DNA from: Candidatus Portnoybacteria bacterium
GTDB lineage: Bacteria; Patescibacteriota; Minisyncoccia; Portnoybacterales; GWB1-42-6
DNA: 64,000 nt
Direction: 5' to 3'
Assembly: GCA_028688325.1 (NCBI GenBank)
Contig: JAQTYI010000004.1
Location: 8,638-72,637 of the forward strand
Part shown: piece by piece, positions 3,128 through 23,030 of the stretch
Layout of the letters: the number at the start of each line of letters is the position of its first letter
Position numbering within the stretch: position 1 is the stretch's first letter
Notes under the pieces: generated by a model
The model's database searches: none
Seen by the model: only the letters and a program-made list of their open reading frames with translations
What the model was told of the DNA's origin: nothing
Translations under genes and position numbers: made by a program

Positions 3128-3310
3128 TTATTTTTCTGTCGGGGTGCGGTCGCTGGAGGTCGCTTTATTGATCAATAAAAAAACTAATATGAAAACAATG
3201 ACGAGAAAAACCACTACTGCCAAAAATTTACTGAATGTCAATATGGATATTCTTGTTTCTTCTACTCTGTAAATCGCGTCAATAATTTCCGCATAAACCG
3301 AATTAAACAT
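3128..3310 (-). CDS. Small membrane protein (hypothetical)
   Basis: Strong SD aaggaggtga 6 nt before the ATG; one hydrophobic helix. Confidence 0.45.
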   Translation of the reverse strand: MFNSVYAEIIDAIYRVEETRISILTFSKFLAVVVFLVIVFILVFLLINKATSSDRTPTEK

Positions 3311-3448
3311 AAAATCACCTCCTTGTGGTTTACAAAATTTTTTATGAAAAGAACGATTCTTTAAATCCGCATCTAAGCCCTGTATAAAAAATACGGGGCT
3401 GGAATTCGGGTTTAAATATAAATTACAAGGTCAAGTATAAACACAATT

Positions 3449-3531
3449 GTCATCCCGGGCTTGACCCGGGATCCAGGCCCCTGGATTCCCGCTTTCAGTT
3501 TACCCCGCACTTGATGCGGGGCGGGAATGAC
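3449..3531. repeat. GTCAT-family element, CCCGGG-hairpin variant (reverse orientation of the 58541 copy)
   Basis: gtcatcccgggcttgacccggg...gcgggaatgac; its reverse complement matches 58541-58629. Confidence 0.65.
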
Positions 3532-3650
3532 AGTTGAAAGTATTTATACTTCTATTAACACAGGCAGAACCACCCCGTAAAATTTCGCTGCGCGAAATCA
3601 CGGGGCGAGACGCGGTATTATAATGCTGGCAGGCGCGTCCGTGTTAGTTT

Positions 3651-5516
3651 TTATACCTCTATCAGTACTGGCAGAACCATAGGCCTTCGCTCGGTTTTAG
3701 TGTATAAGAATTGGCCTATTTTGTCACGCACCTGGTCTTTTATGTAGTCCTCATTGAGCGGGCCTTTGGCGCCGATCGAGTGGTGCACTATTTCTTTGAC
3801 TTTCTGGCGCACCTGGTAAAGTAATTCTTTGGACTCGCGCATATAAATAAATCCGCGGGAGATTATGTCGGGGCTGTTGCGCACTTGGCGAGTTTGCGTA
3901 TCTATCGTGACGATGACCACGAACATTCCGTCCTGTGCCATGGCCTGGCGGTCGCGCAAAACGACTTGGCCGATATCGCCAACACCCAATCCGTCAACGA
4001 ATACATAGCCCGTGGGCACTTTTTTGTTGTGGATCTTGGGCTCGCCGGTGCTGGCAAATTCCAAAACAGCTCCATTATCCAAAACGAAGATATTGGCCTT
4101 GTGCATGCCGACTTCCACGGCCAGCTTGGCCGCTTCTTTGAGCATGTAGTGATTTCCGTAGACCGGAATAAAAAAATCCGGTTTTATTTGCCCGATTATT
4201 TCTTTGATGTTCTGGGCGTTGCAGTGGCCGCTGGTATGCACATCCATAATGTCGGTGTGAATTACATTGTCGGATTGGCGGTAGAGATTATCTTTCAGAC
4301 GCTGGACCGTGCGCTCGTTTCCGGGAATTACGGAAGAGGAAAAAATAATGGTGTCTTGTTTGCGCACTTTGATGAAGCGGTGGTCGCCGGCAACAATGCG
4401 CGAAAGAACCGCGTTGCCTTCGCCCTGCGCGCCGGTGCAAATGATGATTATCTTATTGTCCGGATATTTGTGCAGGTCGTTGACCGTGATTAGGGTTTCC
4501 TTGTCAACTTTGATATAGCTCAGCTCCTTGGCGATTTCCACATTCATTTTCATACTGAAGCCGTCCAGCGCGACTTTTTTGCCGACTGTCTTGGCGTATT
4601 CCAGAATATGGCCCACGCGCCGGATCTGCGAAGCAAATGTGCCGATGATGACTTTGCCGGTCGCTTCGTTGATAAGTTTTTCCAAATTGGCATACATTTC
4701 TTTTTCGGTGACATGGCTTGTGCTCATATCGGTGGCGCCCAAGCTTTCAAGCATGAGGACTTTAGGGCCGGGCAGCGCGGCCAGGTGCGCATAAGAAAGC
4801 AATTTGCCGCTGATGGGATCTTTGTCCATGGTCCAGTCGCCGGGATGCACGACCGTGACCGAAGGGGTCTGCAATATTACGCCGACCGCGTCCATTATGG
4901 AATGTTCAACATCGAAAAAACTCAGATTGAAATTGCCCAGGTGTATTTTGTCTTGGATGGATTTGACGGGAATTATGTCCAGGCGCTTGGCGGAGCTTTT
5001 TTCATAGTCCTCCAGCCGTTTTTTTATCAAAGCGATGGTCAGGTCGCGCCCGATGATAGGCGGGTAATTCAGTTTTTGAAGCAATATGGGAGCTGCGCCG
5101 ATATGGTCCAAGTGGCCATGGCTGAAGATCACGGCTTGGATATCTTTTTCTCTGCCTTGCAGGTATGAAATGTTGGGAATGATGTAGTCGATTCCCGGCA
5201 TATCTTCTTCGGGGAATTGCACGCCCATATCCAAAATAACGATATCTTTGCCGTATTCAAAGATGGTCATGTTGCGGCCGACTTCTTCCTGGCCGCCCAA
5301 AGGAATTATTTTCAGGGTATTTTCGCCCTTGTTCTTATAGTCGTTTATACCGGCGTCGCTCGGGCCCGCTTGTCCGTGGCTGCCGGAATAACCGGTTCTT
5401 TTCTGACCCGGTTTCTTGCCGCGCGGGCGAAATCTGGCGGCCGCTCCGCTTCGATGAGTCGAAGGAGAAACGGGCCGGCTCGCTTGCGAGCGAGGTATGT
5501 TTGTTTGAGGTGTCAT
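3651..5516 (-). CDS. rnj: Ribonuclease J (metallo-beta-lactamase/beta-CASP) with ~65 aa basic low-complexity N-terminal extension
   Basis: SHGHLDHIGA motif; beta-CASP architecture; length typical apart from the extension. Confidence 0.82.
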   Translation of the reverse strand: MTPQTNIPRSQASRPVSPSTHRSGAAARFRPRGKKPGQKRTGYSGSHGQAGPSDAGINDYKNKGENTLKIIPLGGQEEVGRNMTIFEYGKDIVILDMGVQFPEEDMPGIDYIIPNISYLQGREKDIQAVIFSHGHLDHIGAAPILLQKLNYPPIIGRDLTIALIKKRLEDYEKSSAKRLDIIPVKSIQDKIHLGNFNLSFFDVEHSIMDAVGVILQTPSVTVVHPGDWTMDKDPISGKLLSYAHLAALPGPKVLMLESLGATDMSTSHVTEKEMYANLEKLINEATGKVIIGTFASQIRRVGHILEYAKTVGKKVALDGFSMKMNVEIAKELSYIKVDKETLITVNDLHKYPDNKIIIICTGAQGEGNAVLSRIVAGDHRFIKVRKQDTIIFSSSVIPGNERTVQRLKDNLYRQSDNVIHTDIMDVHTSGHCNAQNIKEIIGQIKPDFFIPVYGNHYMLKEAAKLAVEVGMHKANIFVLDNGAVLEFASTGEPKIHNKKVPTGYVFVDGLGVGDIGQVVLRDRQAMAQDGMFVVIVTIDTQTRQVRNSPDIISRGFIYMRESKELLYQVRQKVKEIVHHSIGAKGPLNEDYIKDQVRDKIGQFLYTKTERRPMVLPVLIEV

Positions 5517-19303: not shown

Positions 19304-19437
19304 TTGGCAGTTTTTTAAGGGAAGAGAGATTTTTAAAAACAGGGCAGGGTAGAGAAAGAATAAAATGTATACACGGAGAGGTCGTCCGCTCAGGCATAAT
19401 GAGCGGATCCGCTCGCTTCGCCGAGCGGACATACAAT

Positions 19438-19698
19438 ATGTTTTATGTCTATGTGTTAAAAAGTGAAAAAGACGGGAACTGTTATACCGGTTTTAGCATT
19501 GACTTAAAGAAAAGAGTAGAAGAACATAATAAGGGGAGAGTAGAAATAACAAAAAATCGCAGGCCCTTGTTGTTGGTTTATTATGAAGCATTTTTGGACG
19601 AGAAGGCTGCGAGGCGGCAAGAATTATTTTATAAGACCGGTCAAGGAAGAAGAATTTTAAAAAAGAGATTAAGCTTTATACACGGAGAGGTCGCATAG
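19438..19698 (+). CDS. Small GIY-YIG nuclease-family protein (copy 1)
   Basis: FYVYVLKSEKDGNCYTGFSIDLKKRVEEHN GIY-YIG motif; 3' end overlaps the tRNA-Ser 5' end. Confidence 0.65.
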   Translation: MFYVYVLKSEKDGNCYTGFSIDLKKRVEEHNKGRVEITKNRRPLLLVYYEAFLDEKAARRQELFYKTGQGRRILKKRLSFIHGEVA

Positions 19699-19768
19699 AG
19701 GCCGAGTGCGCTCGCTTGGAAAGCGAGTGGTCCGCAAGGACTCGAGGGTTCGAATCCCTCCCTCTCCG
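19684..19768 (+). tRNA. tRNA-Ser (anticodon GGA), type II with long variable arm
   Basis: Manual fold: acceptor GGAGAGG/CCTCTCC, 3-bp D-stem, anticodon loop TTGGAAA, T-loop TTCGAAT. Confidence 0.7.
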
Positions 19769-19796
19769 CAATCCTTCGCTAAAGCTACGGAATTGC

Positions 19797-20096
19797 ATGC
19801 ACTATACTTATATTTTATTAAGCTCAAAATCCCATATTTTTTATTTCGGATCAACGAACGATTTGAAGAAAAGATTAATTTTACATAATTCTGGCAAGGT
19901 ACCATCCACTAAACCGCATATTCCTTGGATTCTGGTATGGTACGGTGCTTTTCAGGCAGAAAAACAAGCAAGGGATTTTGAGCTTTACTTGAAAAATGGA
20001 TCGGGGAAGGCCTTTGCTTATAAAAGATTAGTTTCGGTAGCTTTGGCGAAGGATTTTGAATCCGGGAGAAAAGGTAGTCCGAAGCTAAAAGCGTAG
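19797..20096 (+). CDS. Small GIY-YIG nuclease-family protein (copy 2)
   Basis: YTYILLSSKSHIFYFGSTNDLKKRLILHNSGK; start reset downstream of the tRNA. Confidence 0.6.
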   Translation: MHYTYILLSSKSHIFYFGSTNDLKKRLILHNSGKVPSTKPHIPWILVWYGAFQAEKQARDFELYLKNGSGKAFAYKRLVSVALAKDFESGRKGSPKLKA

Positions 20097-20100
20097 GATA

Positions 20101-20114
20101 CCCTCCCTCTCCGC
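20101..20114. repeat. 14-bp direct repeat of the tRNA-Ser 3' end (ccctccctctccgc), att-like
   Basis: Identical to 19756-19769. Confidence 0.55.
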
Positions 20115-20240
20115 CAGATGTCCAAGTTATAACCGAGGTAAAATAAGGGATTTTGACGATTGAAAAGCTGGTATCCGTAAAGATGTCGGTTTTTCAATAA
20201 TACTTATCAATAGCAAAGAAAATTGGTATAATAGAGTCAT

Positions 20241-21413
20241 ATGAATGGAAGTCAAAAACATCTAAATCATATAGACGCCATTAATCTTGGGTCATATTAT
20301 ACCCCAGGTATTATTGTTGATTTGGCTTATTCTATTTTGCAAAAAAATATCAAAGATATTAAAGATTTTTCAATATTAGATTCTTCTTGTGGTTACGGTT
20401 CTTTTTTGATAAGAAACAACATTGTGAAAAGATTGATTGGAGCCGATATCGATCAAAAAGCCATTTCTGAAGCAAAAAAAATAATTAGCGGAGTTGATTT
20501 TATCTGTCAAAATTCTCTTTTGAATGTTAGTCGTTCAAGTTTAATGATTAAGAATGATGAAAAAATTATAACCATAGGAAATCCTCCATATAACGATACA
20601 ACATCTATAATTCGTAATTCCATTAAAGATACTTCCATTCAGGATAAAATCGATGCCGACATAAAAACTAGGGATTTAGGCATGTCATTTTTATTGTCTT
20701 ACGACAAACTAAAAGCGGATTATGTTTGTGTTTTGCATCCTTTATCATATTTAATCAAAAAAGCCAATTTTGCCCTGCTTTCAAAATTCGCTAAAAATTA
20801 TAAATTAATTGACGGAATAATCATAAGCAGTCACGAATTTTCTGATACTTCTCGCGGAATGGCTTTTCCGATCTTGATCGCCCTTTATGAGAGGGATGAA
20901 AAAGGAATGGACTATAATTATATTCAAAATTATCAGTTCAAGGTGAAGGACGATGGTATTTTCCGTCTAAAGGATTTTGATACTATAGTCAACTATGTTC
21001 AAAAATATCCAAATAAAAAATTTTTAAATAAAAATGACAAGCCAGTAGCAAGGTTTTGGACTTTGAGAGATATAAATGCACTTAAACGAAACAGGACTTT
21101 TATTGATGAAGATACTTATAATACCGTTTATGTGTTAATGGAAAAATTGCCCTATTATTGCTACATCGATATTTTCAAACAATATACAGATAGAATGCCT
21201 TATTTCATTGGCAATTGTGATGTGATAATTGATAATGAAAAATTCGGAAAAATAAAGGAGTGCTTTATTGCCCAAAGCGTTCACACAAATCCGGTATTAA
21301 GAAATAAGTTTAGGTTTAGAGAAATTCCGGATGCAAAATTTAAAATAGATAACTATTTTAAAGAGTTGTTAGAAAATAAATTTGGAAAAAAACATGCCGC
21401 AAATTTTAATTAA
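20241..21413 (+). CDS. N6-adenine DNA methyltransferase, gamma class (YTP...FxGxG...NPPY), with C-terminal target-recognition region
   Basis: LGSYYTPGIIVDL; ILDSSCGYGSFL (motif I); GNPPY (motif IV); very AT-rich. Confidence 0.7.
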   Translation: MNGSQKHLNHIDAINLGSYYTPGIIVDLAYSILQKNIKDIKDFSILDSSCGYGSFLIRNNIVKRLIGADIDQKAISEAKKIISGVDFICQNSLLNVSRSSLMIKNDEKIITIGNPPYNDTTSIIRNSIKDTSIQDKIDADIKTRDLGMSFLLSYDKLKADYVCVLHPLSYLIKKANFALLSKFAKNYKLIDGIIISSHEFSDTSRGMAFPILIALYERDEKGMDYNYIQNYQFKVKDDGIFRLKDFDTIVNYVQKYPNKKFLNKNDKPVARFWTLRDINALKRNRTFIDEDTYNTVYVLMEKLPYYCYIDIFKQYTDRMPYFIGNCDVIIDNEKFGKIKECFIAQSVHTNPVLRNKFRFREIPDAKFKIDNYFKELLENKFGKKHAANFN

Positions 21414-22155
21414 AAAAGACGAACATAAAATAAAAATACCAATTTTATTAACTGCTGTTAGTGGAAAAATTCGCATTAAAAACCGATCAATTTTGAATGA
21501 ATACGGAACGCCAGTTGCAGTTAAAAGAGATGGTTTCTTATTAAGCAATTATGTCGAGTGGCAAATTGGCTACGATGTGGTTAAAAAGGAAACAGAAAAG
21601 CTCGCAGAGTCATCACTACCCGAAACTGAATTTATTGGGGCAAATGGAAAGGTCAAGGCGCTTTATGAATTGTCAGAGTATATCTGGTATTTTTATAAAT
21701 GGAACATTATCACCAGAGAAGAATTAGAGAGCGTTATCGCTTATCTTGATTCGATACAAGACCAGAATTTAATTGATAATAATTCCGAGTTGCAAATTGA
21801 CCGCAGTCATCCAATTGAGAAAAATATAAATGGATTTGATTTTGAATATACTCAAGTTAAATACCCTCTATTGATTTACAAATTTAATGGATACGAAATT
21901 ATTACCGAAATAAAAATTACCGAAAAGCAATATGCGGTTGGCACACAGCCAATGTTGTATTTATGTTTTCCAATCACAGAGTTAAAATCAGAAGTTAATT
22001 TAATTGGACGATGCGCCGAAATAAAAGAAATTGCCTATTTTGAAATTTCGGAAAGTAATATTAAAGTATTTTTGGAAATGCTAAAAATGTTTGGCATTTT
22101 ATCTAAAAACCACAAACACGATATTCTACAGATTATTAATACGATTTTAGAATAA
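21382..22155 (+). CDS. Hypothetical protein overlapping the methyltransferase by 32 nt; candidate restriction endonuclease or partner
   Basis: Operon overlap; AT-rich; possible D...EIK nuclease-like motif (weak). Confidence 0.4.
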   Translation: MEKNMPQILIKKDEHKIKIPILLTAVSGKIRIKNRSILNEYGTPVAVKRDGFLLSNYVEWQIGYDVVKKETEKLAESSLPETEFIGANGKVKALYELSEYIWYFYKWNIITREELESVIAYLDSIQDQNLIDNNSELQIDRSHPIEKNINGFDFEYTQVKYPLLIYKFNGYEIITEIKITEKQYAVGTQPMLYLCFPITELKSEVNLIGRCAEIKEIAYFEISESNIKVFLEMLKMFGILSKNHKHDILQIINTILE

Positions 22156-22306: not shown

Positions 22307-22510
22307 TTACTTTTTATATTCCAAAATATCTCCGGGCTGGCATTCAAGCGCCTTGCAAATCGCTTCCAGCGTTGATAACCGGATCGCTTTTGCTTTGCTG
22401 TTTTTCAAGACGGAAATGTTGGCCAGCGTGATGCCGACTTTATCGGCGAGCTCGGTGACGCTCATTTTGCGCTTGGCCAGCATCACATCGATGTTGATGA
22501 TAATTGCCAT
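22307..22510 (-). CDS. XRE-family HTH transcriptional regulator (YozG-like)
   Basis: MSVTELADKVGITLANISVLKN helix-turn-helix. Confidence 0.75.
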   Translation of the reverse strand: MAIIINIDVMLAKRKMSVTELADKVGITLANISVLKNSKAKAIRLSTLEAICKALECQPGDILEYKK

Positions 22511-22514
22511 ATGT

Positions 22515-23030
22515 TTAAACAGTTAAGTCGTTCTCTGATTTGATATCCACGGCGCCTTGCAGGGTTTTTTCAAACACAGCCGTCGCGGTGGCAATGACGA
22601 TAGAAATAAAAGTTGCCACAATGCACATGGCAATAAAACCCGCCGGGTCGTCATTTTCAGTAGGAGATATCCCATAGGATATCCTTATGTATAGCCCCGC
22701 CATTACAATTGAGGCGCTTAATACGATCGCGCAATATTTTATGGTCCGTAAAGCGTTCACGGCCGCCTGCGAGAACACTTTATTTTGCCCGATGTATCGG
22801 AGCAATTTAAACGCCTGATATAGCGCGATAAAAAACGGGATAGATGCCGCGTACCCGTACATAATGAACGGATCAGAGTAAATACTGAACAGGTCTAAGT
22901 TTACGGCTCTCCCCTCGGTCAAGGGAAATCGGATCATAATGGCTATTGCCACGATGCCGATGAGCACGATGACTGCCTGAAGAAATATTGTGGTTCGACT
23001 ACGCTCATCATAAATTGAGCTTTTTTTCAT
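22515..23030 (-). CDS. DUF2975-like membrane protein (usual partner of YozG-type regulator)
   Basis: 4 TM helices; conserved pairing with the small XRE gene. Confidence 0.55.
   Translation of the reverse strand: MKKSSIYDERSRTTIFLQAVIVLIGIVAIAIMIRFPLTEGRAVNLDLFSIYSDPFIMYGYAASIPFFIALYQAFKLLRYIGQNKVFSQAAVNALRTIKYCAIVLSASIVMAGLYIRISYGISPTENDDPAGFIAMCIVATFISIVIATATAVFEKTLQGAVDIKSENDLTV

Follow-up and report, generated by a model that had tools for sequence, protein, structure and literature searches.

A probable PabI-type base-excision restriction-modification pair beside a tRNA-Ser gene in a Candidatus Portnoybacteria genome

The window analysed here is a stretch of 64,000 nucleotides from a Candidatus Portnoybacteria assembly (GenBank GCA_028688325.1, contig JAQTYI010000004.1, positions 8,638–72,637 of the forward strand), and all coordinates without a locus number refer to this window. 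Two overlapping open reading frames (ORFs), one for a DNA methyltransferase (M) and one for a putative restriction DNA glycosylase (R), follow a tRNA-Ser gene and very probably form an intact, uncharacterised member of an already described family, the PabI-type base-excision restriction-modification (R-M) systems. The unit consists of:
20204–20232, forward strand: promoter (TTATCA, 17 nt, TG-extended TATAAT), which ranks first among promoter-like sites of the region with 10/12 matches.
20241–21413, forward strand: M gene, 390 aa, ATG start, predicted N6-adenine DNA methyltransferase of PabI-system type.
21394–22155, forward strand: R gene, 253 aa, ATG start, predicted PabI-family (HALFPIPE) restriction DNA glycosylase and apurinic/apyrimidinic (AP) lyase.

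Both ORFs lie where the preliminary description of this DNA had placed them on the forward strand, with 390 and 257 codons; the longer version of R starts at a TTG at 21382 (21382–22155, forward strand) and gives the 32-nt overlap with M reported there. The ATG at 21394 is most likely the true start, because nearly all of the 120 best R homologs are 253 aa long, and from this codon the overlap is 20 nt; this same overlap recurs throughout the close clade. The M-R unit forms a block of ~2 kb with 30% GC, 3′ of tRNA-Ser(GGA), and GC is 0.27–0.34 over about 20.0–22.25 kb, compared with 0.46 for the whole window. An AT-rich island adjoining a tRNA gene had been drawn at 18.5–22.2 kb; its core and its tRNA neighbour (19684–19769, located with ARAGORN) hold, while the part at 18.5–20 kb shows only a mild dip (0.39–0.46).

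R, previously considered to lack a recognisable domain, matches Pfam PF09522 (RE_R_Pab1) from the first to the last profile position (1–119 of 119; 149.8 bits where the cutoff is 25; E = 4.7e-44) and PADLOC REase_II (PDLC03538, E = 8e-17), and close homologs are named ‘R.Pab1 family restriction endonuclease’ by NCBI. The closest solved relative is R.CcoLI of Campylobacter coli (PDB 7cfa_A; E = 9e-59, query residues 16–256 aligned with chain residues 7–237), followed by weaker matches to chains of R.PabI (2DVY, 3WAZ, 5IFF and 6L2N; E = 5e-15 to 2e-13). Functional residues of R.CcoLI were drawn from the published structure (PMC7806768) and located in R by means of the HMMER alignment. R has the identical residue at each of the 16 positions, which comprise the catalytic triad, the AP-lyase lysine, two supporting residues and ten residues predicted to read GTAC:
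Glycosylase triad: Y60, H240 and D243 in the 253-aa numbering (Y64, H244 and D247 in the 257-aa numbering), matching Y52/H222/D225 of R.CcoLI and Y68/H211/D214 of R.PabI.
AP-lyase lysine and supporting residues: K88, D61 and N84 in the 253-aa numbering (K92, D65 and N88 in the 257-aa numbering), matching Lys71, Asp53 and Asn67 of R.CcoLI (mesophilic subtype).
GTAC-reading residues (253-aa numbering): K25, R27, E55, Q57 and Y189 for G; Q185 and M187 for T; I58 and F233 for A; Q179 for C; 10/10 identical to R.CcoLI.

The triad Tyr, His and Asp are invariant among 25 clade members. An AlphaFold2 (AF2) model of R built on 25 clade members (predicted local distance difference test score 63, predicted template modelling (TM) score 0.65) was used solely as a fold check; in a Foldseek search against the PDB it retrieved 14 PabI-family chains (E = 3e-15 to 1.5e-6; TM-scores 0.60–0.66, normalised to target length), and the best match outside the PabI family reached only E = 0.5. 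R is classed here as a PabI-family (HALFPIPE) DNA glycosylase and not as a nuclease. Structure prediction, suggested earlier as a check, gave a non-nuclease fold of known function, although that function is still restriction, by base excision.

In M, the YTP, CGYGSF and NPPY motifs noted previously are all present in the translation: YYTPG at residues 19–23, motif I (ILDSSCGYGSF, 45–55, with CGYGSF at 50–55) and motif IV (NPPY, 114–117). Some 270 residues follow NPPY, and the C-terminal ~250 aa are presumably the target-recognition region. Because motif I precedes NPPY and a long variable region lies at the C terminus, M looks like a gamma-class N6-adenine methyltransferase, as proposed before, the class being read from motif order only. 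M matches PADLOC MTase_II (PDLC03275) over nearly its full length (E = 1.5e-85) and Pfam N6_Mtase (25.9 bits against a cutoff of 20.4), and a database entry identical to M carries the name ‘N-6 DNA methylase [Candidatus Portnoybacteria bacterium]’; the exact match of the window's GroEL is likewise assigned to Candidatus Portnoybacteria. It is also 50% identical (E = 7e-105) to the methyltransferase encoded directly upstream of an R.Pab1-family gene on a C. coli plasmid (NZ_OQ553953), and R is 44% identical to the R protein of that plasmid.

M and R behave as one unit across genomes. A genome scan with one genome per species yielded 79 related loci (cited below by number, as L001 and so on), and in each of the 75 that have DNA beside R an M homolog directly adjoins it, on the upstream side except at two loci of inverted gene order; M is no orphan conserved apart from its partner. 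Identities of the two proteins to those of the window co-vary, from 96/93% (M/R) down to 38/40% (Pearson r = 0.975, n = 61 loci). The earlier proposal of a cognate R-M pair on a horizontally acquired AT-rich islet is supported; the idea of a novel defence pair, or of ‘something new’, has to be given up, as the family is already in Pfam, PADLOC and the PDB and NCBI names its homologs. Comparison with 17 loci gave ratios of nonsynonymous to synonymous substitution rates (dN/dS) of 0.06–0.09 for M and 0.03–0.08 for R (dS from 0.4 to more than 1.5), and both genes are under strong purifying selection.

These ratios bear directly on the alternative that survives best, namely that the pair is not an active defence, R being silenced or attenuated so that only M matters (in an epigenetic or ‘vaccine’ role), or the unit surviving chiefly as a selfish addiction module. 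Such a state has a precedent in Helicobacter pylori, where just ~20% of isolates have a functional R gene (PMC10273834); five related loci carry frameshifted or partly replaced copies (L056, L061, L067, L070 and L073), and the unit acts as a mobile element in many contexts. In the window, however, R is intact with all catalytic residues present, its dN/dS does not exceed the M value, unlike the situation in H. pylori, and depletion of GTAC in host flanks implies real restriction pressure. Selfish and defence roles are, moreover, compatible with each other, and this alternative as a whole appears improbable.

Among the altered copies, L056, L061 and L073 are frameshifted, while in L067 (9036–10001) and L070 (9022–10001) the C-terminal half of M and the N-terminal half of R are swapped for ~970 nt of unrelated AT-rich DNA, which in L070 encodes an Xre-like helix-turn-helix (HTH) protein and an HNH-like 155-aa ORF on the opposite strand. 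For such a replacement in the middle of the unit, HpyAXII of H. pylori offers a similar case with its hrgC replacement.

R and M are predicted to target GTAC, because all base-reading residues are conserved, and the predicted product of M is GTm6AC (m6A, N6-methyladenine). The window contains 21 GTAC sites against 46.6 expected (observed/expected ratio (O/E) 0.45, Poisson P = 2e-5); in the pooled host flanks of 58 loci GTAC is the most depleted of eight palindromes (O/E 0.58), several hosts having none, and the 11 closest units contain no GTAC against 17.7 expected, the window unit likewise being free of it. A PabI-family pair with changed specificity, for example for ACGT instead of GTAC, would account for a far stronger void, as ACGT is absent from all 64 kb against ~98 expected (second-order Markov model, P ~4e-43). 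The ten base-reading residues are, however, identical to those of GTAC-specific R.CcoLI; hosts of 92–96% identical R proteins are near-normal in ACGT (O/E 0.85 in L002, 0.80 in L004 and 1.00 in L005), and the R-M units of these three loci themselves contain ACGT; avoidance of ACGT varies independently of the presence of PabI; and the closest units are those devoid of GTAC. A switch to ACGT is very unlikely, and the PabI pair was rejected as the cause of the ACGT void for the same identity of base-reading residues and the near-normal ACGT in hosts of close relatives.

Several other observations concern these palindromes. CTAG is also scarce in the window (4 observed, 42 expected). A motif scan of the window detected no second DNA methyltransferase, the sole other ORF with NPPF being UvrC, and the ACGT void implies an ACGT-targeting system located elsewhere in the genome. 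At 20601, 20995, 21220 and 21704, within M and R, the window has ATGT or ACAT where relatives (L001, L002, L004, L005, L006, L016 and L036) have ACGT; these CG to TG/CA changes look like a signature of 5-methylcytosine deamination or of selection against ACGT after arrival, and they lead to the prediction that the modification behind the ACGT void is 5-methylcytosine. L014 and L017 have hosts with ACGT-free flanks, and their units are ACGT-free as well.

The weakest alternative, a classical Type II pair in which the 257-aa partner would be a metal-dependent PD-(D/E)xK endonuclease with a D...E-x-K motif, as the preliminary description had tentatively suggested, is scarcely credible: a position beside a methyltransferase fits any Type II system and the motif (FDFEY...EIITEIK), with D149, E172 and K174 in the 253-aa numbering, was picked out by eye, but R aligns end to end with HALFPIPE glycosylases, no PD-(D/E)xK family occurs among its Pfam, PADLOC or Foldseek matches, only the E of the motif is kept in active R.CcoLI (which has N in place of D and I in place of K), and PabI-family enzymes work without divalent cations (PMC10273834).

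Some points weigh against a PabI-type base-excision system specific for GTAC. The AF2 model is mediocre, so that the fold assignment leans mainly on sequence identity to solved structures, and the only PabI-system methyltransferase with which M was compared is the Campylobacter partner. The window shows a moderate shortage of GTAC, far less marked than its lack of ACGT, and in the pooled 71 units (70 loci and the window) many palindromes are depleted and GTAC is not uniquely low, although this pool is not decisive for specificity and the 11 closest units and the host flanks are more informative. Close to the AP-lyase lysine, R has 9 aa more than R.CcoLI in a variable loop segment, which could make it a more or less efficient lyase. 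Finally, the activity of the window protein and of the whole clade from the candidate phyla radiation (CPR) is deduced from characterised homologs: M/R order, family membership and the catalytic and base-reading residues are seen in the sequence, while the biochemistry is that of homologs (PMC7806768, PMC4357717, PMC10273834).

On the model of these homologs, a PabI-type pair would operate as follows. M would methylate adenine N6 in 5′-GTAC-3′ of the host genome, while an R homodimer would scan DNA with its positively charged half-pipe, bend and unwind unmethylated GTAC and flip out the purines, and then hydrolyse the adenine N-glycosidic bond in a metal-independent reaction. The two resulting abasic sites would be converted to a double-strand break with atypical, hard-to-religate ends, either by the Lys88-dependent AP-lyase activity of R itself (as in the mesophilic R.CcoLI type) or by host AP endonucleases, or by both. 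Self DNA would be spared, m6A in GTAC blocking base excision.

Expression appears to be arranged around the promoter at 20204–20232. With just 8 nt between its −10 box and the start codon of M, it probably yields an M mRNA with no leader or almost none, and a layout of ...TGATATAAT followed by 6–9 nt and ATG is kept upstream of M in most related loci, where flanks are unrelated. The M/R overlap suggests that R is translationally coupled to M, which would ensure that M is made first. Directly past the unit, on the reverse strand (22307–23030), are a gene for an HTH_26 protein (Cro/C1-type, 67 aa) and one for a DUF2975 membrane protein (171 aa); they are regarded as host genes and not as an R-M controller protein, because their adjacency to the unit is not conserved in other loci.

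Compared with known systems, the window pair is most like CcoLI (PDB 7CFA; PMC7806768), with which R shares the triad, the AP-lyase lysine on an inserted beta-sheet region and the ten GTAC-reading residues; window R differs in having ~8 extra N-terminal residues and 9 aa more between Asp61 and Asn84, and the host is a CPR bacterium rather than a member of the Campylobacterales. On C. coli plasmid NZ_OQ553953, M of the related pair likewise precedes R, but window M is 41 aa longer at its C terminus, the end overlapped by R. The classical GTAC systems RsaI and CviQI, whose restriction enzymes are phosphodiesterases, have the same recognition sequence, and neither showed any relation to window R in any search made. 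M.CviQI gives the same GTm6AC protection (PMC4357717). HpyAXII of H. pylori (R.HpyAXII/M.HpyAXII), likened here by its description, is a mobile, mesophilic PabI-family pair directed at GTAC, a site that the host genome avoids, and its R decays occasionally (PMC10273834); its R is often inactivated, whereas R of the CPR clade is as constrained as M. PabI of Pyrococcus abyssi (R.PabI, 2DVY/3WAZ; M.PabI) is the founding member; its enzyme has the HALFPIPE fold, excises adenine from GTAC and is blocked by m6A, but R.PabI is only distantly similar to window R (E = 5e-15 to 2DVY, in a local alignment). R.PabI is hyperthermophilic and has weak AP-lyase activity, as the Lys73 side chain faces away from the active site (PMC7806768), and the relative arrangement of the M and R genes differs in archaea (PMC10273834).

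R has more than 1,100 homologs, the best 120 being 81–92% identical and, where named, coming from Moran-, Buchanan-, Falkow-, Yanofsky- and Paceibacteria metagenome-assembled genomes (MAGs); no exact protein match of R was found. Most of the closest genome loci are also from CPR/Patescibacteria MAGs, and the genome scan added contigs labelled Saccharibacteria, Gracilibacteria, Berkelbacteria, Uhrbacteria and Woesearchaeota. More distant members (40–60% identity) are found in Poribacteria, Clostridia, Rickettsiales and Spirochaetes MAGs. The Woesearchaeota contig (L040) is genuinely archaeal (DPANN), since a RadA/Rad51 gene (314 bits) abuts R; a ‘Pacearchaeota’ contig (L008), which carries LexA, is probably bacterial. 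In a plasmid search, R.Pab1-family genes were found on 14 Campylobacter conjugative plasmids and no other plasmids matched, and neither 50,697 phage records nor IMG/VR viral contigs contained an R homolog. The same locus, recognised by its neighbour genes, is present in GCA_028710785.1, a public assembly from the same organism, where the assembly breaks inside R; these look-ups of neighbour genes yielded no empty site. Two contigs of that assembly (L080 and L082; JAQTTM010000002 and JAQTTM010000003) both end within the R gene, and the assembly graph was probably split there by nearly identical units from CPR populations that occur together. Family reviews list Campylobacterales, a few thermophiles (bacteria and archaea) and scattered others (PMC4615327; PMC10273834), and no paper linking the PabI family to CPR or DPANN was found in the literature searched.

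DNA homology between the window and other loci extends from about 20219 to about 22163, so the minimal mobile unit is promoter plus M plus R, ~2 kb; in most loci its flanks are unrelated. The features on the tRNA side, and their counterparts elsewhere, are:
19438–19698, forward strand: G1, GIY-YIG ORF whose stop codon falls within the tRNA 5′ end; it is bounded by 16-nt direct repeats (ATACACGGAGAGGTCG) at 19369 and 19678.
19684–19769, forward strand: tRNA-Ser(GGA) (ARAGORN), a landmark 5′ of the unit and not part of the R-M system.
19797–20096, forward strand: G2, GIY-YIG ORF of 99 aa between the functional tRNA and the remnant; the 14-nt tRNA-3′-end repeats lie at 19756 and 20101.
20101–20116, forward strand: remnant copy of the tRNA-Ser 3′ end (CCCTCCCTCTCCGCCA), with an exact 14-nt repeat of 19756–19769.
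20117–20198, forward strand: conserved tRNA-Ser trailer, with an intrinsic-terminator-like hairpin and T-run at 20159–20198.
GIY-YIG homologs: L007 4858–5091; L025 8411–8647; L036 15284–15511; L001 146–397.
Loci in which tRNA-Ser precedes the unit: L013, L014, L015, L019, L021, L025, L033, L034, L035, L061 and the window (19684–20241).

The last 14 nt of tRNA-Ser, CCCTCCCTCTCCGC, occur at 19756–19769 and 20101–20114 and nowhere else in the window, compared with 0.25 copies expected when two mismatches are allowed. The att-like repeats mentioned in the preliminary description are real to this extent, but they flank a GIY-YIG ORF and not the R-M island; they were rejected as att sites bounding the island, both copies bracketing G2 and the window holding no further copy to the right of R. 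The tRNA-Ser(GGA) gene is sandwiched by G1 and G2 on the same strand (19369–20114), and homologous GIY-YIG ORFs of ~80–90 aa lie 60–110 nt 3′ of tRNA genes (Ser-GCT, Ser-CGA and Gly-GCC) in other CPR contigs. G1 and G2 have the appearance of very small mobile cassettes whose insertion at the ends of tRNA genes regenerates the tRNA. Direct repeats common to all tRNA-adjacent GIY-YIG ORFs were also considered and rejected, clear repeats of this kind being seen only in the window and partly in L025.

In a subset of loci (L014, L019, L025, L028, L032 and L061), homology reaches further left, to 20101–20122, and that to L019, L014, L025 and L032 begins at 20101–20111; L019, L025, L032 and L024 have ...CCGCCA remnants equivalent to that of the window. 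This leftward stretch is the natural tRNA-Ser trailer, starting right after ...CCGCCA, and in the subset the remnant of the tRNA 3′ end marks the left edge of co-travelling DNA. The hairpin at 20159–20198 (RNA fold −16 kcal/mol, z = −5.5, 0/200 shuffles as good) has homologous counterparts in L025 and L014, and the trailer acts as an insulator between the tRNA and the M promoter. On the other side, the first ~120 nt past the R stop in L002, L003, L004, L006, L007 and L021, on contigs otherwise unrelated, are a common GC-rich element (GCGGCGCGCCA...GGCACGAAATTCGGCGGCGG...GAAAGCGAGGGCGGGCAAAA), and a different trailer of ~60 nt past R is common to L005, L009, L020, L022, L023 and L031.

A same-strand tRNA-Ser gene lies within 550 nt upstream of M in 11 of ~36 evaluable CPR-clade loci (the window and ten others), with four anticodons (GGA, GCT, TGA and CGA); roughly estimated, chance alone would give well below 1%. 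The unit lies between tRNA-Ser(GCT) and tRNA-Ser(TGA) in L013 and after both in L021 and L034, and no integrase is present at tRNA-Ser-adjacent units. In L033, GroES-GroEL precede tRNA-Ser(GGA)-M-R as in the window. With identities of only 53% for GroEL but 83% for R, the unit seems to have been transferred horizontally to a site of the same type. Candidate mechanisms for the preference are recombination in the conserved tRNA-Ser body or hitch-hiking with the GIY-YIG cassettes at tRNA ends. A different R-M gene occupies this position in L008, where a gene for an MvaI/BcnI family restriction enzyme (3286–4134; E = 2e-44) lies directly 3′ of tRNA-Ser(GGA), beside an N6_N4 methylase fused to LexA-like domains; the tRNA-Ser 3′ flank may be a general hotspot for R-M genes in these genomes.

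What was put forward as a possible novel defence pair is resolved to an already described system, and base excision takes the place of phosphodiester hydrolysis as the mechanism of the partner. The remaining novelty may lie in distribution and mobility, that is, the CPR-wide spread and the preference for tRNA-Ser flanks, and not in biochemistry. A tentative and rather doubtful extension is that PabI-type restriction belongs to the common R-M types of ultrasmall CPR bacteria and reaches at least some DPANN archaea, carried by an integrase-less promoter-M-R cassette of ~2 kb with near-leaderless M that prefers tRNA-Ser 3′ flanks of any anticodon. The added value is modest and concerns distribution, restriction glycosylases being extended beyond Campylobacterales and a few thermophiles to CPR copies that are intact and strongly constrained. 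If GTm6AC and metal-independent adenine excision hold in CPR, base-excision immunity would have a wider ecological relevance, and pre-methylation of GTAC in incoming DNA might be a useful hint for genetic manipulation of Patescibacteria.

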